Origin: an uncultured Candidatus Peribacteria bacterium
GTDB taxonomy: Bacteria > Patescibacteriota > Gracilibacteria > UBA1369
Length of the DNA: 64,000 nt
Assembly (NCBI GenBank): GCA_964528305.1
Contig: CAZGSD010000002.1
Coordinates: forward strand, 93,409 to 157,408
Direction: 5' to 3'
Below the pieces are notes generated by a model, which was given only the letters and a program-made list of their open reading frames with translations, was not told the origin of the DNA and made no database searches. Positions 1,934 to 30,932 of this stretch are shown one piece after another. Within the stretch, counting starts at the first letter, position 1. Every line of letters begins with the position of its first letter. The position numbers were made by a program, and so were the translations under genes.

Positions 1934-3880
1934 TTATTTTACCAAATAAAACTCCCGAGCCTTATCATCTGACACAGTAACAACATCATCAAAAACAGTA
2001 GCAGCACTTATTTTTATCACAACCATGCGGTAAATAATCTGGGCAACCTCGCCGCGAGTAATAAACTCATTCGGTTTAAACTTTTCCCGTCCTCCATCAA
2101 TCAAACCTTTTTCTTTGGCCATAGCGATGTAACCACTATACCAAGAATCAGTGGTAACATCGGCAAAAGGACGACTAGCTGGCTTAAAATCACCAACATT
2201 CATTCCAGCAGCTTCCATCAACATTTTCAAAAATTCAGCACGAGTCACATTACTGGCCGGTTTAAATTTATTACCCACATAACCTTTAACAACACCATCC
2301 ATTTGAGCCGCTAAAACATATTTAGCATACCAAGCGCCAGAATCCGTATCCGCAAATTCCAACAAACCACGATTAACTAAAGCTTTATTCAAGCCCTCAT
2401 AAATCAATTTCACAGCCTCTACGCGAGTTACTGGATTTTGCTGTTTAAAAGTACCATCAGAATACCCATTAATCACTCCATGCTCTTTCAAAAAATCAAC
2501 AGCCTTATAATTAACATCATCTTTTAACAAATCCTTAAAGAAGGATTCTTTAATCACCTCAGACACAGCAGCAATGCGGCCATCAGTCACCCCCAAACGC
2601 AAACCAAAAGACACAGTAGGGGTATATAGAACTTCTGCTTTTCCATCAACAAAGTCATCAGCATTCAAATAGGTTTTAGCTAAACTAGCACCACCGTTTT
2701 CCACTTTCACTTCTAATTCTTTTTCAGGTTTATAATTAGAAATAACCTGACCATCTTTATCCAAAGCCACCACTTTCAACTTTCCAGCCACACCGACATT
2801 GAAACTATCCTCATGCTGCAAAGCAAAACTAGCCAATTCTTTCACCTCCGGTTTCGCCACCACAGCAGGCTGAACAGTCACGCTAACTGGCGTTACAGGA
2901 GCATTAGTTACCTCTGAGGATGGTTCCGGAGCAGGCTTACTTTCTACAGGTTTTACCTCCGGCTGCTCACTAACAATTGAAGTGCTTGTTTCCACGCCAG
3001 CTCCGCCAAAATTTCGATATTTCTGCACATAAAGCAGAGGATGTATTGTCGTGGCTAAAGCCTTGTCTTTACCGAGTCCTACATTAACACCATCCCAAAA
3101 TCCGACTTTAGCATCAGCCGCATCCTTGGAAGTAAAAGGCCAATACAAATGCCAAGGAGCCTGATCATTATCTATTTGAAAATGCAAATGTGGCGTAGTA
3201 GCCGTACCCGAATTACCACTATAACCAATCAATTGCCCCTTATTCACTTGATCTCCTTCAGCCACCACAAAACTTCCCAAATGAGCATATCCAGAATAAT
3301 AAGTAGTTTTCACAGTAGCATCCGCAAGTGACGGTACCTCATCATGCCTAAGTACCACATGATAACCAAAACCAGAAGACTGATTAACAGCTTTAACAAC
3401 AACCGCATTGGCAATAGCATAAACAGGAGTTCCAGCAGGCAATTTAATATCCACAGCCAAATGACTACCAGCATATTCTTGCCCATCCAACTTATAATTC
3501 CCCATGTAAGGCGTGCTATAAGTCACCTGAGCATTTCTAATATTCTTGTCACTAAATTTGCTAAAATTCAAACTACTGAAAGGCACAGACAACTGAGCTG
3601 GATTATATTCCGGCATGTCCACAAACTTATCCAGTGGAATATCGATATAAGACGCCTTCCATTCTGCCGAAGTCAAATCTACCCAATTAGGCACTTTCTT
3701 AACCGGATAAACCGTACCATCAAAAATTGCTGATTTTTTGGCTGTCAACACATTGGCCTGAAAGTCCTGCCAACCGATGTTAACCATGCCTCCAGCCACA
3801 ATAAAAGCAGCTGCAACCAGCAAGATTTCTCTTCCACGTGTTTTCAAAAATTTATTTTCTCTAAACATCATCTTGAACAT
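1934..3880 (-). CDS. secreted M23 (LytM-type) peptidase with three C-terminal SLH domains
   Basis: An N-terminal signal anchor is present. M23 motifs are HLAVDI, GYHVVLRH and TTPHLHFQI. Three repeats of the type F.D...WY..Y......G...GY.....FKP...TR.E occupy the last ~200 aa. Confidence 0.85.
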   Translation of the reverse strand: MFKMMFRENKFLKTRGREILLVAAAFIVAGGMVNIGWQDFQANVLTAKKSAIFDGTVYPVKKVPNWVDLTSAEWKASYIDIPLDKFVDMPEYNPAQLSVPFSSLNFSKFSDKNIRNAQVTYSTPYMGNYKLDGQEYAGSHLAVDIKLPAGTPVYAIANAVVVKAVNQSSGFGYHVVLRHDEVPSLADATVKTTYYSGYAHLGSFVVAEGDQVNKGQLIGYSGNSGTATTPHLHFQIDNDQAPWHLYWPFTSKDAADAKVGFWDGVNVGLGKDKALATTIHPLLYVQKYRNFGGAGVETSTSIVSEQPEVKPVESKPAPEPSSEVTNAPVTPVSVTVQPAVVAKPEVKELASFALQHEDSFNVGVAGKLKVVALDKDGQVISNYKPEKELEVKVENGGASLAKTYLNADDFVDGKAEVLYTPTVSFGLRLGVTDGRIAAVSEVIKESFFKDLLKDDVNYKAVDFLKEHGVINGYSDGTFKQQNPVTRVEAVKLIYEGLNKALVNRGLLEFADTDSGAWYAKYVLAAQMDGVVKGYVGNKFKPASNVTRAEFLKMLMEAAGMNVGDFKPASRPFADVTTDSWYSGYIAMAKEKGLIDGGREKFKPNEFITRGEVAQIIYRMVVIKISAATVFDDVVTVSDDKAREFYLVK

Positions 3881-9839: not shown

Positions 9840-12317
9840 ATGCTTGAATTAATTATCATCAATCTCATTCTCATCGCGGCCGGAGCATTATCGCTCTATG
9901 GCATATTCTGGCTAGCCAAAGAAAAATACCTGGAGCACCGCAACTTCCAGCGTTCACTCAACCTGGTTTTTCTAAAAGTGCAAATGGCTAAAAAAGAGTC
10001 CAAAGAAGAACAGGATCAGGAGCAAAATTCAGGCGCCAAAGACTTCAAAGAAGCCATTAGCATCATGGCCCAGATGTACGACTCACTACATTCCATCTAT
10101 TCAGGTGACTGGAAAAACCGTTTTACCGGAGAAGATTTTCTCTCACTAGAATACGTTGTACAGCAGGAACAGATTTATTTTTACATGGTAGTACCATCCA
10201 AACTCGTCTCTCTCATAGAAAAACAGATCACCGGTCTTTTCCCAGATGCCTATGTCGATCAAACCGAAGAGTATAACATTTTCCAACCGGATTCCTGCAC
10301 AGCAGCCAAAGCTCTCACTTTGAGCAAAAATTTCATGTACCCAATTCGTACTTTTCAACGTCTCAGTTCCGATCCAATTAACAATCTAACCAACGCTCTC
10401 TCCAAATTATCCAGCGAAGACGGAGCCGCCATACAAATCATGATACGTCCTACCGATGACTGGCAAAAAGCCGGCCGGGACGAAGCCAAAAATATACTCA
10501 ATCAAAAACCCAAGAAAAACAAAACCCACCCCCTCAACCCCATCAAGTGGATTGGCGCTTTTTTCCAATTCATGATGGGACAGGAATCAAAAGATAAATC
10601 ATCAGGCCCCGAAGCACCAGACCGCACTACCCCCATGACTGACGAAGAAGTCAAAGATTTGGAACAAAAAAACACCAGCAAAGGTTATGAAACAATCATT
10701 CGCGTCATTTGCGCAGCCAAAGATGCCCATGAGGCCAAATCCAATCTTACCAATATTGTCAGCACTTTCGCCCAATATTCATCACCAACCGCCAATAAAT
10801 TCTCTAGCGTCAAACGATACCCAGAGGAAAAAATCATCAACGATTACATTTTACGCCGCTTCACTTATCCCTGGTATCAACGCATTAAAAGAAAACTGAC
10901 TATTTTATCCAGCGAGGAATTAGCCTCAATTTTCCACTTCCCTAATACTCGCTTCAACAAAACTCCCAATATTCACTGGCAAAGCTACAAAATCGCTGCC
11001 ACACCCAAAAACATGCCCAAAGAAGGTCTACTTTTGGGACATAATCATTTCCGTGGTATCACCACCGAAATACGCATGAAAAGAGAAGATCGTTTCCGCC
11101 ACTTCTACGTTATCGGTCAAACCGGTACCGGTAAATCATCTATTTTTCAAATCATGGCCCGCCAGGATTTACGCAATAATGACGGCCTGGCCGTGGTCGA
11201 TCCCCACGGTGAATTAATCGATACCTTACTACCATTTGTTCCCAAACATCGAGCCGATGATGTTATTTATTTCAGTCCTGCGGATCAAGCCCGCCCCATG
11301 GGGCTCAACCTCCTAGAAGCTGATTCAGATGATGAAAAAGAATTGGTTGCCCTAGATGCCATGAATATCATGATTAAATTATTCGGCAATGAAATTTTCG
11401 GACCACGCATACAAGATTATTTTCGCAATGGTTGTCTCACGCTAATGTCCCATCCAGAAGGCGGCACTATCGTAGACATAGTTCGACTCTTCACCGACGA
11501 CGATTTCCAGCAGGAAAAAATGCAATATGTTAAAAACCCAGTGGTAAAATCTTTCTGGACGGATCAAATGGCCAAAACTGGCGCCCGGGAAAAACAGGAA
11601 ATCATACCCTATTTTGCCGCTAAATTCGGTCAATTTATCACTAACTCCATGATGCGCAACATCATCGGACAAACCCGCTCCGCTTTCGATTTTATCGATG
11701 TTATGCAACAAAAAAAGATTCTATTCATGAATCTTTCCAAAGGTGAAATCGGTGACATCAACTCCAAATTACTCGGTTTAATCATCGTTTCCAAACTTCA
11801 AATGGCCGCCCTCCGCCGCCAAAGATTTGCCAAAGAAGATCGTCAGGACTTCTTTATGTACATCGATGAATTCCAAAACTACATCACCGATTCCATCGAA
11901 AGCATACTATCTGAAGCTAGAAAATACCGTCTCTCACTCAATATGGCTCACCAATACATCGCCCAATTAGAAGGCGAAGATGGCAAGTCCAGAGTAAAAG
12001 ACGCTGTTTTCGGCAATGTCGGAACCATGATGTGCTACAAAATAGGCGCAACTGACGCAGAATTCATGGCCAAAGAAATGGCCCCAGTCTTCTCAGCCCA
12101 AGACATGATCAATGTTGATGCTTTTAAAGGTATAATGAAATTATCCATAGACGGACAACCTTCCGTACCTTTCTCCATCTCCGTCCCCTTACCTTGGCTC
12201 GAAAAAGGCGATAAAAAGGTCGGTGAAGCTGTACGCCAGCTCTCACGCCTCAAATTTGGCCGCGATCGTGAGTTTGTGGAGAGAGAAATCACCCGTAGAA
12301 TTGGCATTATTGAATAA
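9840..12317 (+). CDS. membrane-anchored VirD4/TraD-like (type IV coupling protein family) P-loop ATPase, paralog 1
   Basis: N-terminal TM helix, Walker A GQTGTGKSS, DPHGEL, RPMGLNLLE, Walker B FMYIDEFQN and EARKYRLSLNMAHQY. The ATG directly abuts the aspS TAA. I do not recognise the N-terminal ~400 aa. Confidence 0.7.
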   Translation: MLELIIINLILIAAGALSLYGIFWLAKEKYLEHRNFQRSLNLVFLKVQMAKKESKEEQDQEQNSGAKDFKEAISIMAQMYDSLHSIYSGDWKNRFTGEDFLSLEYVVQQEQIYFYMVVPSKLVSLIEKQITGLFPDAYVDQTEEYNIFQPDSCTAAKALTLSKNFMYPIRTFQRLSSDPINNLTNALSKLSSEDGAAIQIMIRPTDDWQKAGRDEAKNILNQKPKKNKTHPLNPIKWIGAFFQFMMGQESKDKSSGPEAPDRTTPMTDEEVKDLEQKNTSKGYETIIRVICAAKDAHEAKSNLTNIVSTFAQYSSPTANKFSSVKRYPEEKIINDYILRRFTYPWYQRIKRKLTILSSEELASIFHFPNTRFNKTPNIHWQSYKIAATPKNMPKEGLLLGHNHFRGITTEIRMKREDRFRHFYVIGQTGTGKSSIFQIMARQDLRNNDGLAVVDPHGELIDTLLPFVPKHRADDVIYFSPADQARPMGLNLLEADSDDEKELVALDAMNIMIKLFGNEIFGPRIQDYFRNGCLTLMSHPEGGTIVDIVRLFTDDDFQQEKMQYVKNPVVKSFWTDQMAKTGAREKQEIIPYFAAKFGQFITNSMMRNIIGQTRSAFDFIDVMQQKKILFMNLSKGEIGDINSKLLGLIIVSKLQMAALRRQRFAKEDRQDFFMYIDEFQNYITDSIESILSEARKYRLSLNMAHQYIAQLEGEDGKSRVKDAVFGNVGTMMCYKIGATDAEFMAKEMAPVFSAQDMINVDAFKGIMKLSIDGQPSVPFSISVPLPWLEKGDKKVGEAVRQLSRLKFGRDREFVEREITRRIGIIE

Positions 12318-12387
12318 GAAAGCAACTCAAATTAAACCATTTTTCTAAAAACCGTCAACACCTACTCCCAGCTTGACCTTCATCTTC

Positions 12388-12396
12388 TGCTATAAT
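12388..12396 (+). promoter_or_regulatory. extended -10 box TGCTATAAT
   Basis: tgctataat lies 30 nt upstream of the ATG at 12426. There is no good -35 at 17-nt spacing. Confidence 0.45.
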
Positions 12397-12425
12397 ATAA
12401 GGATTGCCTTAAATCTTTGCAGAAC

Positions 12426-13763
12426 ATGAAAATATTTTCAGGCTCCAAAACTATCCATAAGCAGATACTTGGTGTGCTCTGCTGTTACAATTTGTTTCTG
12501 CCATTAGCAATGGCTCAAAGCGTAGAGGCCGAAAAGCCTATAGTTTTCACTAACAAACTCACCTCAAGCGAGACTATCTCAGAAGATATCGAAACCGAAA
12601 CATCCATTTCTGAAGTCCATCCAACCCCAGACACTCCAGCACCAGCCCCATCTGAATCCAACTCCAATAATGAGCAAATTTACCCATATCAACAGACTTT
12701 CACCATTACCGCCTACTACTCACCAATAGAAGGCCAAAAACGTTACATCAGGGGCTCCCTGGCTGCTGACAAGAAACTTAATGGGCGAGGCACCAACGGT
12801 GCTGACGGCACCCCAGTCTACCCTGGCATGATAGCCGCCCCCAAATCCATAGCCTTTGGCACCAAAATGGATATTCCAGGGCTGGGAACGGTAGCCGTAC
12901 ACGATCGCGGTGGAGCCATAGTTCCGGCAGGGGAGCGGGGCCAACGTTTCGACCGCCTGGACGTCTGGATGGGCCATGGAGACGAAGGACTTAATCGAGC
13001 CCTACGATGGGGACGCCGTAACGTCAATGTAACTGTACACGGCCAAAACGAATCTATTCCTGAAAACATCGATTTATCCAGTATATCTGGAGCTGATCTA
13101 CCAATAAATACCACTAGCAACACCAGCTCCAATCAAGAATTCGGTTTAGACGATGAAAACGAGCAAATCAGCCAAATCAAAAAAAACTTCGCTCAATTGA
13201 AATACTATCAAGGTGAAATCAACAATCAATTCGACGAAAACTTACGCCAAGCCGTAGTCAAATTTCAATTAGAATATGAGGTAATTGACCAAGAAAACGA
13301 CTTTGGCGCAGGTTATTTCGGCCCCCAAACCAGAAAAACACTAGAAAAAGCTTTACAGGGACTTAGTCCAGCCAAAAATCATCAACAAAACCTCATTCCA
13401 CTAGCCCAAGCCAGTCCTCGCGATCAAATCGCCCAAAACATTGAATTTGCTGGTAATGGTCTAGCTTTCCTTGATGACGACCTATCTCTAGGCGATTCAG
13501 GTCAAGCAGTCATAGAATTACAAACCGAATTAGCCAAATTAAATCTATTCGGACTTACCCCAACAGGCTATTACGGTGAATTAACCGCCCATGCCGTCTA
13601 TAAATTCCAGCAGAGCAGGGGAATAGTAATCAACAAAGAAGCCCCTGGAGCCGGCGCCTTCGGTCCTTCCACCCGCGCCCAAATGACCATAATAGTCAGC
13701 AACCGCATCGAAAATCGCCGACTAATAGCTCAAAAAAGCCCACAATTACTGGCACAGAAATAA
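12426..13763 (+). CDS. secreted 3D-domain cell-wall hydrolase with two peptidoglycan-binding (PG_binding_1-like) repeats
   Basis: Signal peptide present. 3D-domain signature FTITAYYSP..G..TNGADGTPVYPGMIAAP..I.FGT..DIPGLG...VHDRGGAI. C-terminal repeats LRQAVVKFQ...GYFGPQTR and TAHAVYKFQ..GAFGPSTR. The ORF track starts at TTG 12417; I prefer the ATG at 12426. Confidence 0.75.
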   Translation: MKIFSGSKTIHKQILGVLCCYNLFLPLAMAQSVEAEKPIVFTNKLTSSETISEDIETETSISEVHPTPDTPAPAPSESNSNNEQIYPYQQTFTITAYYSPIEGQKRYIRGSLAADKKLNGRGTNGADGTPVYPGMIAAPKSIAFGTKMDIPGLGTVAVHDRGGAIVPAGERGQRFDRLDVWMGHGDEGLNRALRWGRRNVNVTVHGQNESIPENIDLSSISGADLPINTTSNTSSNQEFGLDDENEQISQIKKNFAQLKYYQGEINNQFDENLRQAVVKFQLEYEVIDQENDFGAGYFGPQTRKTLEKALQGLSPAKNHQQNLIPLAQASPRDQIAQNIEFAGNGLAFLDDDLSLGDSGQAVIELQTELAKLNLFGLTPTGYYGELTAHAVYKFQQSRGIVINKEAPGAGAFGPSTRAQMTIIVSNRIENRRLIAQKSPQLLAQK

Positions 13764-13776
13764 TATAGAAATCCTG

Positions 13777-14211
13777 TTATTTAGCAAAATACTTTTTAAA
13801 CGCCTTATCCTCATCAGGATGAAAAAAGTCCTCTAAAGAAAACTTCCAATTAGTCGGATCTATCCATTCCATTTCCTCATGATCTTGAGAGATTATGGCT
13901 TCACCATCTAAATACTTCGCCTCATAAACAGTAACAAAAACCGAATAACCTTGATCAAAAAAATATCTCCTATACTGAAATAAGGGGCCTCCAACCTCTA
14001 TTTTAAAATTCTTACCAAGTTCTTCATTAATCTCCCGCTGTAGCACTTCCATCAAATCACTATCTCTTTCATCAACATTAATTCTTCCTCCAGGTAAATC
14101 CAAACGCCCACTTGGATGATGTTTCAGAAGCAAAAACTTCCCATCTCTCCAAATCAAGGCTTTTAGCCCAATCTGATAAGAAGCATGTTCTAACACATCT
14201 CTATTAACCAT
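13777..14211 (-). CDS. NUDIX hydrolase
   Basis: Nudix box GGRINVDERDSDLMEVLQREINEELG. Confidence 0.85.
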   Translation of the reverse strand: MVNRDVLEHASYQIGLKALIWRDGKFLLLKHHPSGRLDLPGGRINVDERDSDLMEVLQREINEELGKNFKIEVGGPLFQYRRYFFDQGYSVFVTVYEAKYLDGEAIISQDHEEMEWIDPTNWKFSLEDFFHPDEDKAFKKYFAK

Positions 14212-14227
14212 TTATTTCTCAAAGTTA

Positions 14228-14632
14228 TTAATCAGCAACTAACTCCATCACCCAATCATTATTAGAAATTTTCTGTGAATCTTTAACCAAGTCTCTGCCA
14301 GCCTCATAGCCAGTAGCCGCAATATTAGTCACCTCATTAATAATCCCCATCGGGATTACTATCACACCATTATTATCTGACTTTCCCTTCCACTCTTGCC
14401 CATCAGTATCGCAGGGCGTCGTAATACATCTAATACCATTGTCGCTATAAATATTCACATCAGTATTGGCAATAGCCTGCTTTGAAAGAGCATTCAATAA
14501 CTTTACTTTTATAATTCCATTTTGGGTTACAGGAACAGCACCTTTTTCACCAAAAACAAAATACCCCACACCCACACCAAGAAGTAAGCCCACTAACAAA
14601 ATCACTAAAACTTTTTTATGCATATTTTTCAC
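14228..14632 (-). CDS. small signal-anchored protein of unknown function (beta-rich)
   Basis: 134-aa ORF with an N-terminal hydrophobic helix (VLVILLVGLLLGVGVGYFVF). No recognisable motif. Confidence 0.5.
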   Translation of the reverse strand: MKNMHKKVLVILLVGLLLGVGVGYFVFGEKGAVPVTQNGIIKVKLLNALSKQAIANTDVNIYSDNGIRCITTPCDTDGQEWKGKSDNNGVIVIPMGIINEVTNIAATGYEAGRDLVKDSQKISNNDWVMELVAD

Positions 14633-14653
14633 TTCTTATCTTCAGTCTTCATT

Positions 14654-14738
14654 TGGTGCTGGGGAGAGGACTCGAACCTCCATGCTTTTAGGCGCTAGCT
14701 CCTAAGGCTAGTGTGTCTACCAGTTCCACCACCCCAGC
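14654..14738 (-). tRNA. tRNA-Leu (anticodon UAG), long variable arm, CCA encoded
   Basis: The reverse complement is GCTGGGGTGGTGGAACTGGTAGACACACTAGCCTTAGGAGCTAGCGCCTAAAAGCATGGAGGTTCGAGTCCTCTCCCCAGCACCA. The anticodon stem CTAGC/GCTAG encloses the loop CTTAGGA. Confidence 0.9.
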
Positions 14739-14798: not shown

Positions 14799-15113
14799 TT
14801 ATACCTCGCCCAGCAAATGCAAATGTATATGGAAAATTTCTTGCCCCCCTTTTTCACCGACATTAAATAGCAGTTTATAGCCAGATAAACCCAACTTACG
14901 GCCCATATCACGCGCCACCAGCATCAAATGCCCCAATAAAGCCTGATCTTCATCGGCAGCTGCCATAATAGTCGGTATTTCTTTTTTAGGAATAATCAAC
15001 AGATGCACTGGAGCTTTGGGATATTTGTCATGAATTACCACACAGAATTCATCTTCATACTCTATCTGAGCTGGAATTTCCCTCTGAATAATTTTAGTAA
15101 AAATTGATGTCAT
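14799..15113 (-). CDS. HIT-family (histidine triad) nucleotide hydrolase
   Basis: HIHLHLLG triad at the C-terminus. MTSIFTKIIQREIPA is a typical HinT N-terminus. The upstream extension in the ORF track (to 15161) is unlikely to be real. Confidence 0.85.
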   Translation of the reverse strand: MTSIFTKIIQREIPAQIEYEDEFCVVIHDKYPKAPVHLLIIPKKEIPTIMAAADEDQALLGHLMLVARDMGRKLGLSGYKLLFNVGEKGGQEIFHIHLHLLGEV

Positions 15114-15184
15114 CGGATAATAAATAATACTACAACACCAGCATAGTTTTTCATTACCCAAAATTCAAACCAATTTCAAACTTC

Positions 15185-16294
15185 TTATGCTGTTCTCATC
15201 GCTTCATCCAAAGCATAAACCGCACGACCAACACGCACAAATTGGGGATTCTTTTGCAAATTAAGAGAAATAGTACCTTTTTTCACTCTTCGTTGCTTCA
15301 TCACCCCAGCAATAATTTCTTGCTTGCTCATTGGAGATTTCTTACGCAACAAATTCTCAATCACATCTGCCACAGTTCCTTTCTTATATCCCCATTCTTT
15401 CAAAGCATACAAACCGCGGCCAACCAATACAAACTGATCATAACGTATCAATTCATTATGAACGGCCTGAGTTGTTACCAACTTTTTATCAAAACCAGCC
15501 GCCGCAATACGATTAGCAATTTCCACAAAATGAAGAGGTTCAGTTGATTTTTTTAATACTATATAAGCTTTATCACGAATACTACGAGGATTAATATGTC
15601 GCCAAGAAGTCAATCCAAAGCCCTCAGCAACTTTTTTCACTCTTTTGTCTACTTCCATCGCTGAAAGTATCAAAAGCATATCGACAGTCTTACCACGTTC
15701 GGCAAAAACCGCCTGTATCTCACGTCCCAATTCAGCATCAACAACAATATCCCCCTTCTTATTCAATAAGGCTATACCATGATTAATAGCAGCCTTAATA
15801 TCTTCAAAAGCAATAGAGCTTAATTTCCAAAACGGTTTATAAATATTGCTCTTTTCACATTGCACTAGATCAGCATTGATATGCAAAGCCAAACGGATGA
15901 TATGAGCATCCACATCCTGCGCATTAGACAATTGATTCAAAAGCTCAGCCACCAAACGGCTCTCTAACATCAAACCTCCATTGTTTTTCAAAATATCTCT
16001 TGCCAATTTATTAATCACACTAAGCCTAGTAGTATCAACCGTACGACGTAGCTTACCAAGAGCAATTTTTTCTATCTGACGAACACGTTCTCTCGTGACA
16101 GAAAAAGATTGTCCTATTTTCTCCAAAGTCTGTCTCGGCTTATTATCCAAACAAAAACGTTTTACTATTACATCTTTTTCTTTTGGAGTAAGAACCATAA
16201 ACATGTCCTCAATCACGTCCATCAAATTCACGCTAACCAACTGTGACACACCAGCTGCGGCTACAGATCCAGAAGATGATAAATCCTGATTCAT
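15185..16294 (-). CDS. sigma-70 region-4 domain protein with two C-terminal HARE-HTH/winged-helix domains, paralog 1
   Basis: LEKIGQSFSVTRERVRQIEKIALGKLRR closely matches the sigma70 region 4.2 HTH. No region 2 is visible. The C-terminus LHFVEIANRI...VHNELIRYDQFVLVGRGLYALKEWGY matches the HARE-HTH pattern and is followed by a second similar repeat. Confidence 0.7.
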   Translation of the reverse strand: MNQDLSSSGSVAAAGVSQLVSVNLMDVIEDMFMVLTPKEKDVIVKRFCLDNKPRQTLEKIGQSFSVTRERVRQIEKIALGKLRRTVDTTRLSVINKLARDILKNNGGLMLESRLVAELLNQLSNAQDVDAHIIRLALHINADLVQCEKSNIYKPFWKLSSIAFEDIKAAINHGIALLNKKGDIVVDAELGREIQAVFAERGKTVDMLLILSAMEVDKRVKKVAEGFGLTSWRHINPRSIRDKAYIVLKKSTEPLHFVEIANRIAAAGFDKKLVTTQAVHNELIRYDQFVLVGRGLYALKEWGYKKGTVADVIENLLRKKSPMSKQEIIAGVMKQRRVKKGTISLNLQKNPQFVRVGRAVYALDEAMRTA

Positions 16295-16359: not shown

Positions 16360-16368
16360 TGCTAGAAT
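16360..16368 (+). promoter_or_regulatory. extended -10 box TGCTAGAAT upstream of a ~190-nt leader and the GT2 gene
   Basis: tgctagaat is identical to the box at 18796. Confidence 0.4.
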
Positions 16369-16570
16369 ATAGGCCCGGAGCATAGTACTGTCAAGCAAGA
16401 AATTTGACACTATTCACAGTTTGTATATTTACAAAACAAAACCGTTCAAACCTATACAAAGGGCCCACAATATAGTTAAATATACTTTAAAAGTCAACTC
16501 CATTTGCTCTAAATTTGCGGGACGCCCCGCCTGTCTTGTATATTCTGACCACCTTTAAACAACCAACAGC

Positions 16571-18229
16571 CTGAACACACATCTGCAAAAACCCGAAACA
16601 CTAAGGAGATCCAGTCCTTACTGGCGTTTACTGGAAATAATTCCCGGCCTACTAACTTGGTCAGCTTTTCTCCTAGTTTTCATAGGATCCTTTCTTTTCC
16701 CAACCATTACAGCCAATTTAATCATCACCTACACCCTTATTTGGGTATTTCGAACCTTTCACTTTTCTTACAACCTTGTTAAATCCTATTATTTCAGCCA
16801 AAGAAGCCTAAAAGTTCCTTGGAACAAGCTGCTCTCCTACTTAGAAACACCTTCCCGCCTAGAATATTTAATTAAAACAAAAAACTTCCAACTAGATCCA
16901 CTTATTTTGAATCTCAAAAACAAACCAGTAGAACCGCAACTATTAGGAAAGATTCACCATTTACAAAAAATCAACCAAACGCTCAAACCATCTGAAGTAG
17001 TACACTGTATTACACTAGTCACCTATAAAGAATCACTAGAAGTCATCAAAACCTCAGTCGAATCATATATTAAAAGCGACTATGACTTAAAAAAAGTCAT
17101 TTTCATGCTAGCCTGCGAAGAATCCGATCGCGCCAACGCCCAAAACATTGCTGACCAAATTCAGCAAAAGTATGGTCATCATTTTATGGATTTTCTCTGC
17201 ACTTTTCACCCACAAAATCTTCCTAATGAATTAAAAGGTCGTGCCGGCAACGCCACCTGGGCAGCCAAACATCTCAAAAACTATCTAGAAAAAAGAAAAA
17301 TTCCTTTTACTTCAGTAATCCTATCCAGTTTTGACGCTGACACAGTAATTAGCCCTACTTTTTTAAGTGAATTAACCTTCCGCTTCTGTATCACAGAAAA
17401 TCGAACCGAAGTAGGCTATCAACCAGTACCATTCTACCATAACAACATCTGGGACGTACCGGTTTTCAACAGGCTAGTAGCCATTTCCTGTTCATTTTGG
17501 CAACTCTCTGTCAGTTTACGCAAAGACGAAAACAAAAGCTTTTCTTCACGCTCTATGAGTTTTCAATCAGTACTGGATTTTGGCTACTGGGACACGCGAG
17601 TCGTCCAAGACGACTCGCGCCAGTTCTGGACAGCATTTTTCGTCTATCAAGGACGCCATTATCTAGAAAACATCTACAGCCCCGTCTATATGGACGCCGT
17701 ACTCAGTGAATCCTATCTCGACACCATCAAAAGCCAATACAAACAACTAAGACGTTGGGCCTGGGGAGTGAGCGATTATCCATTTATAGTAACCAATTTA
17801 TGGCATAGCCCACATATTCCCTGGAAAAGAAAAGTATATGAAAGCCTACATTTCCTAGAAAGTGTCTTTTTCTGGGCTACAGGCCCTATGATACTACTTT
17901 TCGCAGGTTTTATACCCGGCACTATTAATCAAAACTTCAGCATCACCGTACTCAGCCACAATTTACCAATTATGATGAGTATTCTAATGAATATCGCCTC
18001 CATCGGCATAGTAGTCTGTCTGATTATCACTACTCAAATCATCCCTTTTGACCAACAACGAAGCTTGATCAAAAAAGTATCTCTTTTCCTACAATGGCTG
18101 CTTGTACCAATAGTTTCAGTCACTCTCAGCTCTATACCAGCCATCGACGCCCAAACCAGACTAATGTTAAACAAACGTCTGGACTTTCAGGTAACACAAA
18201 AAAGCCGTAAAAAAGCTTTAAAAGCCTAA
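16571..18229 (+). CDS. processive family-2 glycosyltransferase (cellulose/chitin-synthase-like), start uncertain
   Basis: SFDADT (DxD), VQDDSRQFW and QLRRW (QxxRW), plus C-terminal TM helices. The frame is open from 16559 and encodes two further N-terminal TM helices. The first ATG/GTG/TTG in that frame is TTG 16907; 16571 is an in-frame CTG. Confidence 0.7.
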   Translation: MNTHLQKPETLRRSSPYWRLLEIIPGLLTWSAFLLVFIGSFLFPTITANLIITYTLIWVFRTFHFSYNLVKSYYFSQRSLKVPWNKLLSYLETPSRLEYLIKTKNFQLDPLILNLKNKPVEPQLLGKIHHLQKINQTLKPSEVVHCITLVTYKESLEVIKTSVESYIKSDYDLKKVIFMLACEESDRANAQNIADQIQQKYGHHFMDFLCTFHPQNLPNELKGRAGNATWAAKHLKNYLEKRKIPFTSVILSSFDADTVISPTFLSELTFRFCITENRTEVGYQPVPFYHNNIWDVPVFNRLVAISCSFWQLSVSLRKDENKSFSSRSMSFQSVLDFGYWDTRVVQDDSRQFWTAFFVYQGRHYLENIYSPVYMDAVLSESYLDTIKSQYKQLRRWAWGVSDYPFIVTNLWHSPHIPWKRKVYESLHFLESVFFWATGPMILLFAGFIPGTINQNFSITVLSHNLPIMMSILMNIASIGIVVCLIITTQIIPFDQQRSLIKKVSLFLQWLLVPIVSVTLSSIPAIDAQTRLMLNKRLDFQVTQKSRKKALKA

Positions 18230-18241
18230 TAAAATCAGTTT

Positions 18242-18748
18242 CTAACTAGATTTCTGACAGAATTGCTTCCACAGCCCAATCACAAAATCCTCAGCCACTT
18301 TAGCGGCACGTTGCAATTGCTGTAACAAACCAGCCAAAACCCTGGCCCTCTTAACTTTGTCATTGAGCAGATGCGGCTTATTTTTACTCTTCATCATTAC
18401 TTTAATCTCTTTCTCGACACTATTTAATTCAACTTTAATCGCAGTCACAGTCTGCCCCATCATAATTTCAATACTCGGCAAATCCCTCACCACAGTACGC
18501 TTCAGAACTTTACCAGCCTTACCAGAAGCCCCTCCTTTATTCTCACCAGCCTTAGAACTGTTTTTCTCACTAAATACACCGACCTCTTCAATCCCTTCAG
18601 CAGCTATATCTACTCCTTCATTCACGGTACTGATCACCTTTCCCAGCTCGGCAAAACCGGCATTACTATCAACCCCACGATCCATTCGATTATCAGCAGA
18701 CGATCTATCTAAAGGGTTTTTACCGGGTTGTAACAGTTTTTTATCCAT
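18242..18748 (-). CDS. hypothetical protein (charged, coiled-coil-like C-terminal half)
   Basis: The 196-aa ORF is trimmed to MDKKLLQPG. An extended -10 box lies just upstream. A competing + strand ORF (18357..18836) is low-complexity and would run over the next promoter. Confidence 0.45.
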   Translation of the reverse strand: MDKKLLQPGKNPLDRSSADNRMDRGVDSNAGFAELGKVISTVNEGVDIAAEGIEEVGVFSEKNSSKAGENKGGASGKAGKVLKRTVVRDLPSIEIMMGQTVTAIKVELNSVEKEIKVMMKSKNKPHLLNDKVKRARVLAGLLQQLQRAAKVAEDFVIGLWKQFCQKSS

Positions 18749-18758
18749 ATCTAGACAC

Positions 18759-18767
18759 ATTTTACCA
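18759..18767 (-). promoter_or_regulatory. extended -10 box TGGTAAAAT, 10 nt before the ATG at 18748 (near-leaderless)
   Basis: The reverse complement of attttacca is TGGTAAAAT. Confidence 0.35.
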
Positions 18768-18795
18768 CAAAAAAGTAAACAAAAGAACCTAAATA

Positions 18796-18804
18796 TGCTA
18801 GAAT
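18796..18804 (+). promoter_or_regulatory. extended -10 box TGCTAGAAT
   Basis: tgctagaat lies 37 nt upstream of the ATG at 18841. Confidence 0.45.
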
Positions 18805-18840
18805 ATATAGATAAACAAAAGTCAAACACCATTTAGCGCT

Positions 18841-19779: not shown

Positions 19780-20814
19780 TTAAGCAGCCTTCAGAGCATA
19801 CTGCTTACGTCCAACCCTCACAAACTGATCTTTATTTTTCAAACTCAAAACTATAGTAATAGGCTTCACCTGACGCTGCTTTAATACCTCAGCCACTATG
19901 TCTTCCTGTGACATAGAGTCTTTACCATGCAAAATACCGGCAATAACATCAGCCACAGTGCCAGATTTAAAGCCCCATTCAGCCAAACTATAAATACCAC
20001 GACCAATCAACACAAACTCATCATGACGTATCAGCTCATTATGAACAGCTTGAAGATTAATTTTCTTCCTATCGAAATTACATTCGATAATTTTATTGGC
20101 TATATCGACAAAATGCATTGGTTGCTTTTTCATACGCAACACAAAATAAATTTTGTCACGCAAAGTCCGAGGGTTGATATGGCGCCATTCAAAAAGTCCC
20201 ACCAGTCCACCGTCCAAAACTTTAATTTTCTTATCCACTCGAATCAGAGACTGATAAGTTTCTAGAGTCATAGACACCTTACTTCCAGTTATAACTGCCG
20301 CATACAAATCCTCCAAAGACATTACCTGTTTTGCTTTAGCCAAAGCATCAACCGTCTGTTCACAAACCCCCTCCAAATCTGATTGGAGCAAAGCCACCAT
20401 TTTCAGATAAGGAAAATAAGATACAGTATTAGGAATTCTATTGAAACGTTTATCTATGGATAAAATCAATTGCAGAGCTTCAACAGGATAATCAACATGA
20501 ACCTTGATTAATTCATTAAGTAAGGTCTCTTCCTTAATTACTCCACCAGCTGTCTCAATCAAATCATATGCCATATTCGCCACTGCAAACAAACCACAAT
20601 TCTCTAAATTTCTCTTCAATTTACCTAGAGCATTTTTTTCTATCTGCCTTACTCTTTCTCTGGTAACAGAAAACTTTTGTCCTATTTCTTCAAGCGTAGC
20701 TCTCTCTTGCTGATCCAGATTGAAACGTCTCTCCACAACAAACCTTTCTTTCTGAGTTAACAACAATAAAAAGTCCTGTACCTGTTTAACAAAATCTTCT
20801 GTGACCATGCTCAT
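19780..20814 (-). CDS. sigma-70 region-4 domain protein with two C-terminal HARE-HTH/winged-helix domains, paralog 2
   Basis: LEEIGQKFSVTRERVRQIEKNALGKLKR, then MHFVDIANKI...VHNELIRHDEFVLIGRGIYSLAEWGF and a second repeat. Colinear with 15185..16294. Confidence 0.7.
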   Translation of the reverse strand: MSMVTEDFVKQVQDFLLLLTQKERFVVERRFNLDQQERATLEEIGQKFSVTRERVRQIEKNALGKLKRNLENCGLFAVANMAYDLIETAGGVIKEETLLNELIKVHVDYPVEALQLILSIDKRFNRIPNTVSYFPYLKMVALLQSDLEGVCEQTVDALAKAKQVMSLEDLYAAVITGSKVSMTLETYQSLIRVDKKIKVLDGGLVGLFEWRHINPRTLRDKIYFVLRMKKQPMHFVDIANKIIECNFDRKKINLQAVHNELIRHDEFVLIGRGIYSLAEWGFKSGTVADVIAGILHGKDSMSQEDIVAEVLKQRQVKPITIVLSLKNKDQFVRVGRKQYALKAA

Positions 20815-20957: not shown

Positions 20958-21620
20958 TCACTCCAAAATATAACCGCTACAGGGAACAGTTTTAATCATA
21001 TCATCTACATCAAAACTAGCCTTCAAAATTTTACGTAACTTACTTACATGCACATCCACGGTATTGGTCGAAACAATAAAATTCATATCCCAAACATTTT
21101 CCAAAATATTATTCCTGCTCAAAACCCGACCTCTATTTCTAGCCAAATACAACAACAACTCAAACTCTTTATTTGGTAAAAAAACTTCAGCACGCCCATC
21201 ACCAACAACCCGCCTGTTTAAATTCAACTTTAAAACTCCCAATTCCAAAGAGTCTTTAAGCAAATAATTTTTCACTCCAACTATAGACTGTAAATCATCT
21301 AACAATAATTGATAATTCAAGGGCCAAAAATAACATCTCATGACACCATCAGCTAATCGCCCCAAATTTTCACTCGGAGTAGGCAGTCCATCCATTAAAA
21401 AAAACTTTTCCATTGGCAAAGAAATTTTCATTAAATCAACCCAAATTTCTCCAACACGATCAAATAAAATCACATCACAACTCAATTCCACAGTACCCGC
21501 CCCCACATATCTCCTAAAATACTCAACCCCCATCCTTTCAACTATCACCTTATTTTTCATCAAATATCTGCACACCCCCTCCACCTCACTAATTTTATCC
21601 GAAACCATCAATAATTTCAT
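20958..21620 (-). CDS. OmpR/PhoB-type winged-helix regulator with a degenerate receiver domain
   Basis: The C-terminus LPNKEFELLLYLARNRGRVLSRNNILENVWD...TNTVDVHVSKLRKIL is a Trans_reg_C signature. The N-terminal receiver keeps DVILFD, but the conserved Lys-Pro position reads WPL. Confidence 0.7.
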   Translation of the reverse strand: MKLLMVSDKISEVEGVCRYLMKNKVIVERMGVEYFRRYVGAGTVELSCDVILFDRVGEIWVDLMKISLPMEKFFLMDGLPTPSENLGRLADGVMRCYFWPLNYQLLLDDLQSIVGVKNYLLKDSLELGVLKLNLNRRVVGDGRAEVFLPNKEFELLLYLARNRGRVLSRNNILENVWDMNFIVSTNTVDVHVSKLRKILKASFDVDDMIKTVPCSGYILE

Positions 21621-24541: not shown

Positions 24542-27073
24542 ATGCCAGAACTGGCTAATCCACTAGAACAAATACTTGAAGGCGACATTATGCTGGGCCT
24601 GCTCAACTTACTGATCTGGGGCGCTATCATCATTATAGGCCTCAAATTACTGCGCAAATTTGCCCGTGATATTTTTATACTTCATCAAAATCGCAGTCAC
24701 GTCTGCCTAAAAATTCGCGTACCGCGTGAAGATTCCACTAAAGACAACGAAAAAAAAGAGGACAAAGATTTCAAAGAAAAAGTCAGCCTGATGGAACAGT
24801 GTTTTCGTAATATACATGAACTGTCCGAACTCAGTCTCACCAATATCATTCGTACCACACTCTTTGATTCCAATATTATTTCTTTTGAAATAGTCGCTCA
24901 GAAAAAAGTAATTGATTTTTATCTGATCACACCCGCCATCTATCGTGAATTGCTGGAAAAACAAATCACTGCCTACTATCAGGACGCCGACATCATTCCC
25001 GTAGAAAACTACCAAATCACCAGCCCGGGTCAGCATTTACGCATGTATTTTGCCTATCTTACCCAACCTTTCTGGTTTCCCTTCAAAACCTACAAAACCA
25101 CCGAAAACGACCCCCTCAATGATCTCACCAACATTTTTTCCAAGCTGGAAGACAATGAAATAGCCGGATTACAGGTGACACTTCGACCAATTCGCAGCCG
25201 CAAATACAATAAAATCATCGAACAAACTGCCTCAACATTATTCAAAGGCAAAAAAGTCAATCGTTTCCATATTCCAGGATTGGGCTTCCTCAACAATATC
25301 ATTGTCGGCCTCTTTTTTGGCTATGACAAAATCATCAAAGACAAACCGGAAGATCAGGGTGGTTTCGTCCGCATGCTCCAACCTCTGGAAGAGCGAGCAA
25401 AAAAGATGGGGGAAAAAGCCGCCCAACCATTGTTTCGCACTGTGATAAGATTTTTCGCTTCTGCCAGCACCACCCGCCGCGCCGAAGAAATCACTAACAA
25501 TGTCAATTTAGCTTTCAGCATGTTTCGCGACGAATCCTCCAACTGGTTTCAGACTCGGCGCGTGGTGCCAATCGACGCCATCAATAACCACTTCATGGCC
25601 TTCAACTACCGCAACAGGTTGATTGATACTTCTTTTGGGCCCTTTGGAGAAAAAAACAGTATCAACGGTCCAGAAGAAATCGCCTCCATCTTTCACCTAC
25701 CCTGTAGCCGCTACAATCACACCCCAGCCATCAATTGGCTGCCCTACAAAGTACTTCCAGCCCCAATAGAAACACCAAAAGAGGGAATTTTACTCGGCTA
25801 CAACTTGCACCGTGGCGTAAAAAAAGAAATTCGCATGCTACGTAAAGATCGCACCAGACATCATTACTGCATCGGTAAATCTGGTTCCGGAAAATCTGTT
25901 TTCTTAAGCTTCTTAGCCCGTCAAGATATTTTGGCTGGCGATGGAGTCGGTGTAATCGACCCACATGGAGATCTCATTGAAGAATTAACCAATTTCGTGC
26001 CAAAAGAACGGGCTAAAAACTGTATTATCTTTAATCCATCCGATTCCGAACGCCCCATGGGCTTAAACATACTAGAAGCCAAAACTCCCGAAGAAATGGA
26101 TATGGCCTCCAGCCAAGCCACCGAAATTTTCATCAAACTTTTCGGTGACGAAATTTTCGGACCACGCATCCAACATTATTTCCGCAACGCTTGCCTTACC
26201 TTGATGGAAGACCAAGAAGAAGGCGCCACCCTGATCGACGTCCCACGCGTTTTCGTCGACGATGAGTTCATGAAATACAAAGTCAGCAAAGTCAAAAACC
26301 CCGTGGTCCGCTCTTTTTGGGAACATGAATATGCCCACACCGGCGATCGCGAGAAACAAGAAATGATTCCTTACTTCTCCGCAAAATTCGGTCCATTCAT
26401 CACTAATTCCATCATGAGAAATACTATTGGGCAGACCAAATCTGCTTTCAATTTCCGTGAAGCGATGGATAAACAACAGATTTTGCTGATCAATCTCTCC
26501 AAAGGTAAAATCGGTGATCTCAACACACAACTCCTGGGACTGGTAATGGTTGCCAGAATTCAAATGGCCGCCATGAGCCGCGTGGACATACCAGAAGAAG
26601 CCCGCAAAGATTTTTATCTCTATGTAGATGAATTCCAAAATTTTTCCACCGACAGTTTCTGCTCCATTCTCTCCGAAGCTCGTAAATATCACCTGGCCCT
26701 GATCATGGCCAATCAATATATCAAACAGCTGGAAAAGAAAAATGACACCTCCATACGTGACGCTGTCTTTGGTAACGTCGGTACCATGATGTCTTTCAAA
26801 GTTGGTGCTGATGATGGCGAATATCTGGCCAAAGAATACGCACCAGTACTCACCGAACAGGACATCATCTCCATCGCCAATTTCAAAGCTTATATCAAGC
26901 TCAACATCAATAACACCACTTCACGACCATTTTCACTGGAAACAGTTTATGACATGAGTGGAGCCAACAAAAAAATCGGTGAAATCGTCACCCAGTATTC
27001 CCGCATCAAATATGGCCGTAAAAAAGAATTTGTCGATCAAGAAATTCGCGCCCGCATCGGCATAGAAGTTTAG
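24542..27073 (+). CDS. membrane-anchored VirD4/TraD-like P-loop ATPase, paralog 2
   Basis: N-terminal TM helix, Walker A GKSGSGKSV, DPHGDL, RPMGLNILE, Walker B YLYVDEFQN and EARKYHLALIMANQY. Long colinear blocks are shared with 9840..12317. It starts 6 nt after the glyQS stop. Confidence 0.7.
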   Translation: MPELANPLEQILEGDIMLGLLNLLIWGAIIIIGLKLLRKFARDIFILHQNRSHVCLKIRVPREDSTKDNEKKEDKDFKEKVSLMEQCFRNIHELSELSLTNIIRTTLFDSNIISFEIVAQKKVIDFYLITPAIYRELLEKQITAYYQDADIIPVENYQITSPGQHLRMYFAYLTQPFWFPFKTYKTTENDPLNDLTNIFSKLEDNEIAGLQVTLRPIRSRKYNKIIEQTASTLFKGKKVNRFHIPGLGFLNNIIVGLFFGYDKIIKDKPEDQGGFVRMLQPLEERAKKMGEKAAQPLFRTVIRFFASASTTRRAEEITNNVNLAFSMFRDESSNWFQTRRVVPIDAINNHFMAFNYRNRLIDTSFGPFGEKNSINGPEEIASIFHLPCSRYNHTPAINWLPYKVLPAPIETPKEGILLGYNLHRGVKKEIRMLRKDRTRHHYCIGKSGSGKSVFLSFLARQDILAGDGVGVIDPHGDLIEELTNFVPKERAKNCIIFNPSDSERPMGLNILEAKTPEEMDMASSQATEIFIKLFGDEIFGPRIQHYFRNACLTLMEDQEEGATLIDVPRVFVDDEFMKYKVSKVKNPVVRSFWEHEYAHTGDREKQEMIPYFSAKFGPFITNSIMRNTIGQTKSAFNFREAMDKQQILLINLSKGKIGDLNTQLLGLVMVARIQMAAMSRVDIPEEARKDFYLYVDEFQNFSTDSFCSILSEARKYHLALIMANQYIKQLEKKNDTSIRDAVFGNVGTMMSFKVGADDGEYLAKEYAPVLTEQDIISIANFKAYIKLNINNTTSRPFSLETVYDMSGANKKIGEIVTQYSRIKYGRKKEFVDQEIRARIGIEV

Positions 27074-30687: not shown

Positions 30688-30764
30688 GGCTGGGTAGCTC
30701 AGTTGGTTAGAGCGTGGGACTCATAAGCCCAAGGTCGAGAGTTCGATTCTCTCCCCAGCCACCA
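30688..30764 (+). tRNA. tRNA with CAU anticodon, elongator Met type (tRNA-Ile2/lysidine cannot be excluded), CCA encoded
   Basis: GGCTGGGTAGCTCAGTTGGTTAGAGCGTGGGACTCATAAGCCCAAGGTCGAGAGTTCGATTCTCTCCCCAGCCACCA. The 1-72 pair is G-C, so it is not an initiator. Confidence 0.85.
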
Positions 30765-30857: not shown

Positions 30858-30932
30858 TGGTTGCGGGGGTTGGATTCGAACCAACGACCTCCGGGTTATG
30901 AGCCCGACGAGCTGCCTCTGCTCTACCCCGCG
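30858..30932 (-). tRNA. initiator tRNA-fMet (CAU), CCA encoded
   Basis: The reverse complement CGCGGGGTAGAGCAGAGGCAGCTCGTCGGGCTCATAACCCGGAGGTCGTTGGTTCGAATCCAACCCCCGCAACCA has a C1/A72 mismatch and GGG/CCC in the anticodon stem. It is near-identical to E. coli tRNA-fMet. Confidence 0.9.

Follow-up and report, generated by a model that had tools for sequence, protein, structure and literature searches.

A sigma-70 region 4 protein with four tandem winged helices: a possible Patescibacteria-specific transcription factor for TTGACA-like promoter DNA

The 64,000-nucleotide stretch of DNA analyzed here (the window) comes from an uncultured Candidatus Peribacteria bacterium (GenBank assembly GCA_964528305.1, contig CAZGSD010000002.1, positions 93,409 to 157,408 of the forward strand) and carries a gene, here named gene A, whose product joins region 4 of a sigma-70 factor to an array of four winged helices (wH1 to wH4). 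From comparisons of its sequence we propose, with somewhat less than even confidence, that gene A encodes a sigma-derived transcription factor specific to Patescibacteria (the candidate phyla radiation, CPR), which would act on TTGACA-like promoter DNA together with the RpoD holoenzyme. Patescibacteria form a large, mostly uncultured part of bacterial diversity; their genomes are tiny and the control of their transcription is little known. The role of the family to which gene A belongs (sigma4-wH) may reveal a lineage-specific layer of promoter recognition or of chromosome handling. The individual parts are known, a fusion of HARE-HTH with sigma-like sequence was reportedly noted in 2012, and the essentiality of a family member is recorded only in a supplementary table.

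The preliminary description of this DNA had assigned the N-terminal segment of the protein to sigma-70 region 4, and this assignment holds. Pfam places Sigma70_r4 at aa 34–83 (E=5.3e-14, 51.9 bits against a gathering cut-off of 24.1), and the NCBIfam models RpoD, RpoS, and SigA align to aa 16–91 (E~1e-17) with just their C-terminal ~70 positions, that is, with regions 4.1 and 4.2. Matches of a family profile to all PDB sequences were restricted to region 4 of group 1/2 sigmas, with E values down to 2.5e-21. An AlphaFold2 model built from an alignment of 54 family members (alignment A2, identity down to ~31%) reached a predicted local distance difference test score (pLDDT) of 94.2 and a predicted template modeling score (pTM) of 0.84, and shows ~20 disordered N-terminal residues followed by the region-4 helices. 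In a Foldseek comparison with the PDB these helices matched sigma4 structures, including sigma4/beta-flap chimeras, with a root-mean-square deviation of 1–2 Å over ~60 aa (37–49% identity). Taken together, the domain matches of the gene A protein lie far beyond the level of chance.

The residues of this domain were mapped to E. coli sigma-70 via the unambiguous alignment around VTRERVRQIE. Equivalents of L573, R584, E585, R586, R588, and Q589 are invariant in the family (54/54 members), the equivalent of R562 is kept in 53 of 54 and that of T583 in 50 of 54 (the others have Ser), and the R554 position is occupied by K or R in 50 of 54. In sigma4/-35 complexes such as 1KU7, the mapped residues contact the TTGACA hexamer. 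Unless region 4 of the family binds DNA of the -35 type, it is difficult to see why its contact residues should have been retained throughout so ancient a radiation. The roles offered in the preliminary description were a competitor for the beta flap, a -35-binding regulator, and an RNA polymerase (RNAP) accessory subunit; of these, a reader of -35-type DNA is favored by the invariant residues, since pure flap competition would not need invariant -35 contacts. Like the primary sigma factors RpoD and SigA, the protein has the whole of regions 4.1 and 4.2, and its recognition helix (VTRERVRQIE) is close to that of E. coli (VTRERIRQIE). In contrast to them, it lacks regions 1.2, 2, and 3 and the 3.2 linker, carries region 4 at its N-terminus instead of its C-terminus, and continues from the post-region-4 helix directly into a winged helix; the positions of activator contact, K593 and R596, vary within the family.

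According to the model, the middle and C-terminal half of the protein is made of four tandem winged-helix repeats (aa 91–160, 163–228, 239–298, and 308–362); profile comparisons relate three of them to HARE-HTH or to the N-domain of the RNAP delta subunit. Pfam detects HARE-HTH (PF05066) at aa 238–301 (E=8.6e-8, 32.9 bits, cut-off 25.9), corresponding to wH3, and the NCBIfam delta model TIGR04567 aligns to aa 239–302 with 29.7 bits, under its cut-off of 42. The preliminary description counted two C-terminal HARE-HTH copies. The second copy is real, as hhalign of wH3 vs. wH4 gave P=92% (E=8e-8) and both have an identical helix-strand pattern in the model; the count was too low, since there are four winged helices in total. 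An internal BLAST comparison showed the wH4 repeat with 37% identity over 38 aa. Further hhalign comparisons linked wH2 to wH3 (P=87%, E=5e-7) and wH1 to wH2 (P=64%, E=9e-6), and no Pfam match was obtained for wH1. Against the N-terminal domain of B. subtilis delta (query sequence verified against PDB 6zfb and 7f75_L), wH2 scored best (P=96%, E=1.5e-9) and wH3 next (P=59%). The most conserved domain is wH3 (mean column conservation 0.66), and wH3 together with wH4 makes up the most conserved part of the protein, both being strongly basic.

HARE-HTH-type winged helices are thus what the gene A protein shares with the delta subunit (RpoE) of Firmicutes. It differs in having four copies instead of one, in the fused sigma region 4, in the sub-threshold TIGR04567 score, and in its charge, which is +19 overall (+9 for wH4 alone) vs. 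a net -47 in the C-terminal region of delta. By model and charge count, the C-terminus is a folded basic winged helix with no polyanionic disordered tail. The second class of Foldseek matches consisted of tandem winged-helix proteins (UFL1/DDRGK1, SelB WH2-4, ESCRT-II, and Dcc1); at the sequence level, no match was found between the winged-helix half and the sequences of solved structures.

Sigma-70 region 2 binds the beta' clamp helices, recognizes the -10 element, and melts DNA. No trace of it was found in the gene A protein: a Pfam scan to E=10 gave no Sigma70_r1, r2, or r3 (the sole extra hit was a weak match to DUF7669), NCBIfam and the PDB profile search were equally negative, and the AlphaFold model has no region-2 helical bundle. 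A cryptic region 2 or 3 in the middle of the protein was considered as well. The same searches and a phmmer search with aa 88–235 were negative, and a cryptic region 2 can be dismissed because aa 89–235 are modeled as two winged helices. Nor is the middle part similar to the C-terminal domain of the RNAP alpha subunit (alpha-CTD), as there is no match to PF03118 and no helix-hairpin-helix fold in the model. The view of the preliminary description, that region 2 is absent and that the protein is not a complete sigma factor, is therefore borne out and extends to region 3. Without these regions the protein has no means of binding the beta' clamp helices, reading the -10 element, or melting DNA, and it is not a sigma factor.

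Aravind and Iyer reportedly described, in 2012, bacterial HARE-HTH proteins with traits of both sigma factors and the RNAP alpha subunit. To our knowledge, CPR genomes were not yet available in 2011–2012. The gene A protein differs from such an architecture in lacking an alpha-CTD and in having, by the model, winged helices instead of a helix-hairpin-helix. In B. subtilis SigO-RsoA and phage T4 gp55+gp33, sigma functions are split between polypeptides. AsiA/MotA takes over the position of region 4 at the beta flap (PMC6755090). The gene A protein is unlike all of these in that no region-2 partner was detected in the window or in the Southlakia genome, and the Foldseek comparison shows no likeness in sequence or fold to gp33, AsiA, or MotA. 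In LuxR/GerE regulators, a helix-turn-helix that belongs, like sigma region 4, to the tri-helical superfamily serves as a free-standing DNA-binding module. In contrast, the gene A domain scores as a genuine sigma-70 region 4 with the recognition helix of a primary sigma, and not as GerE, is followed by four winged helices, and is not accompanied by a receiver or ligand domain.

A search of 5.8 billion proteins returned more than 4,400 homologs of the gene A protein. The top 120 (65–80% identity, 345–411 aa) contain the Sigma70_r4 and HARE-HTH pair in all but one case, and their named sources are Candidatus Peregrinibacteria, Gracilibacteria, and Altimarinota. An exhaustive phmmer search yielded 560 clusters (50% identity) at E<1e-30; the best 150 cluster representatives are nearly all full-length and align over aa ~20–365 with 33–60% identity. 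We also scanned the GTDB species genomes, where the best 600 candidate stretches were dominated by true RpoD genes. At least 13 of the matches listed are full-length, all of them from CPR (Peregrini-, Sacchari-, Parcu-, Doudna-, Kaiser-, and Falkowbacteria, and Paceibacterota), and the remaining ones cover region 4 alone, like ordinary sigma factors. Named cluster members, again all CPR, add Azambacteria to this range. Among the matches listed, the full-length combination of sigma4 and winged helices was found only in Patescibacteria, judging by sequence.

In NCBI the family is present as "sigma factor-like helix-turn-helix DNA-binding protein", with collinear full-length homology over ~340–400 aa. 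Our results correct its recurrent mis-annotation as "RpoS", "sigma factor", or "RNAP delta subunit". HARE-HTH domains are common in restriction enzymes, and membership of gene A in a defense system (MZA and others) was considered and rejected: PADLOC matches only the region-4 end of MzaA (aa 20–91), and the neighboring genes are housekeeping genes. No dedicated or functional study of the sigma4 and HARE-HTH family was found in the literature, where the sole entries were those in the tables of PMC10633639.

These entries concern Southlakia epibionticum SEML1_0294, annotated by Prokka as "RpoS", a 349-aa protein with PF04545 at 27–72 and PF05066 at 225–283 (Wang et al., 2023, Cell, PMC10633639, Table S2). 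Its structure-based DPAM parse comprises one domain of sigma4 type plus three winged ones, of which one was matched to 7f75_L, the RNAP delta subunit (PMC10633639). SEML1_0294 belongs to a core, Patescibacteria-enriched family and was essential in transposon insertion sequencing (Tn-seq) at all three time points, with 24 insertions in the input and 1–2 after selection (PMC10633639, Table S1). The gene appears in the tables only and is not discussed in the text (PMC10633639). It shares with gene A the length class, the Pfam pair, the domain parse, and a downstream TrwB-like gene, and differs in belonging to another CPR class and in being single-copy, as opposed to the two paralogs of the window.

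Only one recognizable sigma factor was found in the Southlakia genome, the one complete genome checked for this. There, PF04542 (region 2) is carried by RpoD alone (SEML1_0063), in which r1.2, r2, r3, and r4 are all present. The role of sigma4-wH is open to testing, since both Southlakia and TM7x can be grown in culture and transformation works in the former.

Protein A itself is 78, 70, and 64% identical to its orthologs in three related genomes. For comparison, the corresponding values for proteins encoded nearby are 77/63/59% for aspartyl-tRNA synthetase, 77/63% for prolyl-tRNA synthetase, and 68/54/50% for DnaE. Conservation above that of the neighboring aminoacyl-tRNA synthetases, together with the essential counterpart in Saccharibacteria, suggests a general, housekeeping role of the family rather than control of a niche regulon.

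Upstream of gene A lies a promoter-like site that is the best sigma-70-type match (11/12) between 12 and 24 kb of the window. Its -35 box is overlapped by a 21-bp element, a perfect TGTCAA-N9-TTGACA, which is the sole such hexamer pair in the 64 kb. TTGACA itself is two-fold under-represented in the window, with 18 occurrences observed vs. 36±6.6 expected, and the 12-mer of the gene A promoter element is unique in it. Within upstream regions that are otherwise diverged, the block TCAAAwwTCTTGCTTGACA is invariant among four genomes, and two further loci, chosen irrespective of the motif, retain it with one or two changes. The -35 box and the overlapping element are conserved in 6/6 related loci whose choice did not depend on the motif.

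When metagenomes were scanned for the 19-mer, 117 matches were obtained, 34 of which are directly upstream of A-type genes; these 34 were found by the pattern itself, and their placement means that the extrapolated start lies 10–75 nt beyond the match. Conservation in these 34 extends to positions that the search pattern leaves open: its two unspecified bases are TT in every case, and a TTGC and an A/T tract recur upstream. In total, the element is conserved in 40 related loci. The other 83 of the 117 matches fall mostly inside long open reading frames (ORFs) or in high-GC contigs, as chance predicts. The metagenomic locus L089 has the appearance of such a promoter but was discarded, as no homolog lies downstream. 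The extended motif TCTTGCTTGACA was tried as a general promoter element or regulon marker and abandoned, since the window contains it a single time and, when two mismatches are allowed, no more matches than chance would give. As far as can be read from the sequences, the 21-bp element acts in cis, is specific to this gene, and overlaps its -35 box, and its simplest reading would be autoregulation, with the gene A protein acting on its own promoter.

No conserved element was convincing upstream of the second sigma4-wH gene of the window (paralog B) or of its OmpR-like neighbor, where we also searched. A contrast between tRNA promoters with a -35 element and mostly -35-less protein-gene promoters, noted in the preliminary description, was only weakly borne out in a crude promoter scan: few good -35 boxes were seen anywhere, and scores for the five tRNA genes were 3, 4, 4, 2, and 5 of 6. 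The intergenic region upstream of gene A is unusually long (612 bp) and contains a second promoter-like site (TTGACT-17-TATATT, 16497–16469, minus strand) and a GC-rich hairpin, GCGGGACGCCCCGC, at 16517–16530. The hairpin has no Rfam match, and no RNA element was found in this region, the only Rfam matches in the window being its five tRNAs. Coordinates of all features are collected in Table 1.

Table 1. Gene A, its predicted domains and upstream elements, and associated genes in the window.
Feature	Position	Strand	Basis
Gene A, sigma4 and four winged-helix protein, 369 aa	15185..16294	-	ORF, ATG start, stop codon 15185-15187
Sigma-70 region 4 (4.1+4.2), aa 19-88; helices 24-34, 37-46, 57-64, 68-86	16031..16240	-	Pfam, NCBIfam, PDB profile, model
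Winged helix 1 (wH1), aa 89-161, H-b-H-H-b-b, most divergent repeat	15812..16030	-	DSSP of model
Winged helix 2 (wH2), aa 162-235, cryptic HARE-HTH/delta-like	15590..15811	-	hhalign
Winged helix 3 (wH3), Pfam HARE-HTH, aa 236-303	15386..15589	-	Pfam, TIGR04567
Winged helix 4 (wH4), second HARE-HTH copy, aa 304-369	15188..15385	-	hhalign, charge +9
Promoter-like site of gene A, TTGACA-17 nt-TATATT, end of -10 hexamer 72 nt before ATG	16366..16394	-	11/12 match
21-bp element TGTCAAATTTCTTGCTTGACA, inverted -35 hexamer pair, N9 spacer, overlaps -35 box, candidate operator	16389..16409	-	Conservation
HIT-family gene, 23 nt downstream of gene A	14799..15161	-	Pfam HIT
Paralog B, 344 aa, same architecture as A	19780..20814	-	Pfam; BLASTP E=8e-94, 43% identity full length
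T1, one transmembrane helix and DUF8128-like domain fused to TraG/TrwB/HerA-like P-loop ATPase	9840..12317	+	Pfam
T2, 42% identical to its paralog T1, at 3.7 kb from paralog B	24542..27073	+	Sequence comparison

The HIT-family gene next to gene A is probably co-transcribed with it, and the adjacency of the two is conserved in five related loci (L001, L081, L083, L202, and L203). Paralog B lies 3.5 kb from gene A, directly downstream of an OmpR/PhoB-type regulator gene (20958–21620, minus strand), and this pairing is kept in L081 and L083. PhoB-type activators contact sigma region 4 (PDB 3t72), so that paralog B and its neighbor may interact. Besides A and B, tblastn detected no further region-4-like sequence and no RpoD in the window.

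Two ATPase genes, T1 and T2 (825/843 aa), are each preceded by an aminoacyl-tRNA synthetase gene and located 3–4 kb away from either gene A or its paralog B, an arrangement conserved in L081. Of 13 loci of other CPR classes, 12 have immediately after the sigma4-wH gene a co-oriented gene for a ~430-aa protein with one N-terminal transmembrane helix (protein X), followed in six of them by a gene for a 575–630-aa TraG/TrwB/HerA-like P-loop ATPase. The two halves of T1 are thus separate genes directly downstream of the sigma4-wH gene in other CPR loci. A Pfam scan of protein X gave no match; the corresponding part of fused X+ATPase proteins is DUF8128 in precomputed annotation. The fused Southlakia gene, SEML1_0293, immediately follows SEML1_0294; it is non-essential and retained 87–120 insertions (PMC10633639). 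From this synteny we infer a functional association of T1 with the sigma4-wH family. The link between sigma4-wH and the ATPase is evolutionarily persistent but cannot account for the essential function. The idea that the neighboring ATPase is the CPR FtsK, with the gene A protein as an analog of its gamma domain, was rejected because a canonical FtsK, complete with gamma domain, is present in Southlakia.

If gene A does encode a sigma-derived transcription factor, its region-4 helix-turn-helix would dock on TTGACA-type hexamers as region 4 of a primary sigma does, and the winged-helix array would add contacts to flanking DNA and/or RNAP. In bacteria a single HARE domain has been studied, the delta N-domain, whose place is on the beta' shelf/jaw. 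At promoters, the gene A protein would work beside the single RpoD holoenzyme, and two modes of action can be envisaged: it may occupy -35 or -35-like sites, causing repression or insulation from spurious initiation, or it may bridge -35-like sites to RNAP, causing activation. Its own strong promoter would probably be repressed through the TGTCAA-N9-TTGACA element over the -35 box. The conserved operator-like element offers an in vitro substrate for the sigma4-wH protein.

Several points weigh against such a factor. We infer the DNA target of the protein from residue conservation alone, and the orthology of SEML1_0294 from the length, Pfam pair, and domain parse in published tables and from synteny. 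The cis element could equally serve another factor, be UP-like, or belong to a divergent promoter; it is also a poor fit to a classical dimer, because its hexamers, 15 bp apart from center to center, lie on opposite faces of the helix. Conservation and essentiality across a superphylum are rare for specific transcription factors and fit a stoichiometric RNAP-associated factor better. Finally, conserved synteny links the gene to a TraG/VirD4-like ATPase, and both genes are duplicated in the window, which suggests that the protein has another, or a further, function in the handling of DNA.

The main alternative, although a rather unlikely one, is that the protein accompanies RNAP in stoichiometric amounts, as an accessory subunit or a general initiation factor. 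Here region 4 would sit on the beta flap tip, either on the core enzyme or by displacing region 4 of RpoD, and a delta-like HARE domain on the beta' shelf/jaw. The holoenzyme would be remodeled, or would receive a "region 4 in trans", and DNA would be read on the polymerase. Both module types of the gene A protein have RNAP-binding homologs, region 4.1, part of the flap-binding groove, is retained (RpoD models match from aa 16), and phylum-wide conservation with essentiality resembles general factors of the CarD/RbpA type. On the other hand, the flap is normally occupied, since the CPR RpoD (SEML1_0063) has its own region 4; the gene A protein is strongly basic and has no acidic tail like that of delta; and HARE-HTH domains elsewhere bind DNA. 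Analysis of sequence and model cannot separate the proposed transcription factor from a factor stably bound to RNAP. There is also a small chance that transcription initiation in CPR involves three parts, namely core RNAP, one RpoD, and an essential, stoichiometric general factor made of sigma4 and delta-like domains. This factor would attach to RNAP via its HARE domains, the beta flap, or both, so that -35-type DNA would have a second reader. The mechanism of promoter recognition across the radiation would then depart from that of textbook bacteria, with two promoter classes defined by the two Peregrinibacteria paralogs.

Relaxosome accessory proteins mark or deliver DNA to conjugative coupling proteins, and the gene A protein might similarly be a DNA-recognition adaptor or nucleoid protein working with the membrane-anchored TraG/VirD4/HerA-like ATPase in DNA translocation (transfer, uptake, or segregation). 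We consider this improbable, though conceivable as a second function. It would explain the order of genes in other CPR loci, where X comes next in 12/13 cases and the ATPase after X in 6, the position of the fused gene in Southlakia, and the duplication of T1/T2 (42%), which mirrors that of A/B (43%), the four genes lying inside ~17 kb in an arrangement kept in L081; T1 is also highly conserved (77% and 65% identity), and five DNA-binding-type domains with a charge of +19 suit such a protein. However, the Southlakia sigma4-wH gene is essential and the adjoining ATPase gene is not, which means that the essential role does not need the ATPase. Moreover, the canonical FtsK is encoded separately, the sigma4-wH and ATPase genes of the window are no longer adjoining or co-oriented, and synteny with secDF, mltG, and aminoacyl-tRNA synthetase genes indicates a housekeeping block that is conserved in any case. 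That gene A provides one half of a split sigma factor, with a separate region-2 protein providing core binding and -10 recognition, is very improbable. An intact region 4 of the primary-sigma type would suit this, and two paralogs could give two specificities; but no region-2-like sequence is present elsewhere in the window (tblastn and Pfam of the neighbors), no small conserved partner gene accompanies the family in 15 loci, and the Southlakia genome makes a partner unlikely because RpoD alone carries region 2 there. Nor is a new promoter class implied, as the -35-reading residues are those of RpoD itself. To the reading of gene A as a functionless relic of a sigma gene or as a domain match by chance, which the missing region 2 alone would suggest, we give next to no credence in view of the thousands of homologs, purifying selection above that on neighboring aminoacyl-tRNA synthetase genes, the confident fold, and the essential counterpart in Southlakia.

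Further observations concern the surroundings of these genes. Three ORFs near gene A, at 16907–18229 (plus strand, 440 aa), 18242–18832 (minus, 196 aa), and 14228–14632 (minus, 134 aa), have no Pfam match, and the first two have no NCBIfam match either; at the position of the 440-aa ORF, L081 carries a 559-aa ORF, also without a Pfam match. The interval from the HIT gene to a peptidoglycan-binding gene (13777–14738) contains a NUDIX gene, a small membrane protein, and tRNA-Leu. It can be regarded as a variable islet, because L081 carries other genes at the same place (11632–13530), a LexA and Y-family polymerase (IMS) pair. At 1934–3880 (minus strand) a 648-aa protein with an M23 peptidase domain and three S-layer-homology repeats is encoded, which hints at an S-layer-type envelope in the host CPR organism. 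GC skew is negative in every 2-kb bin of the window (1–64000; -0.08 to -0.41, mean about -0.25) and never changes sign; the window lies wholly on one replichore of a strongly skewed genome. Two tRNA-Met(CAT) genes on opposite strands, at 30688–30764 (plus) and 30858–30932 (minus), face each other at a distance of 94 nt.

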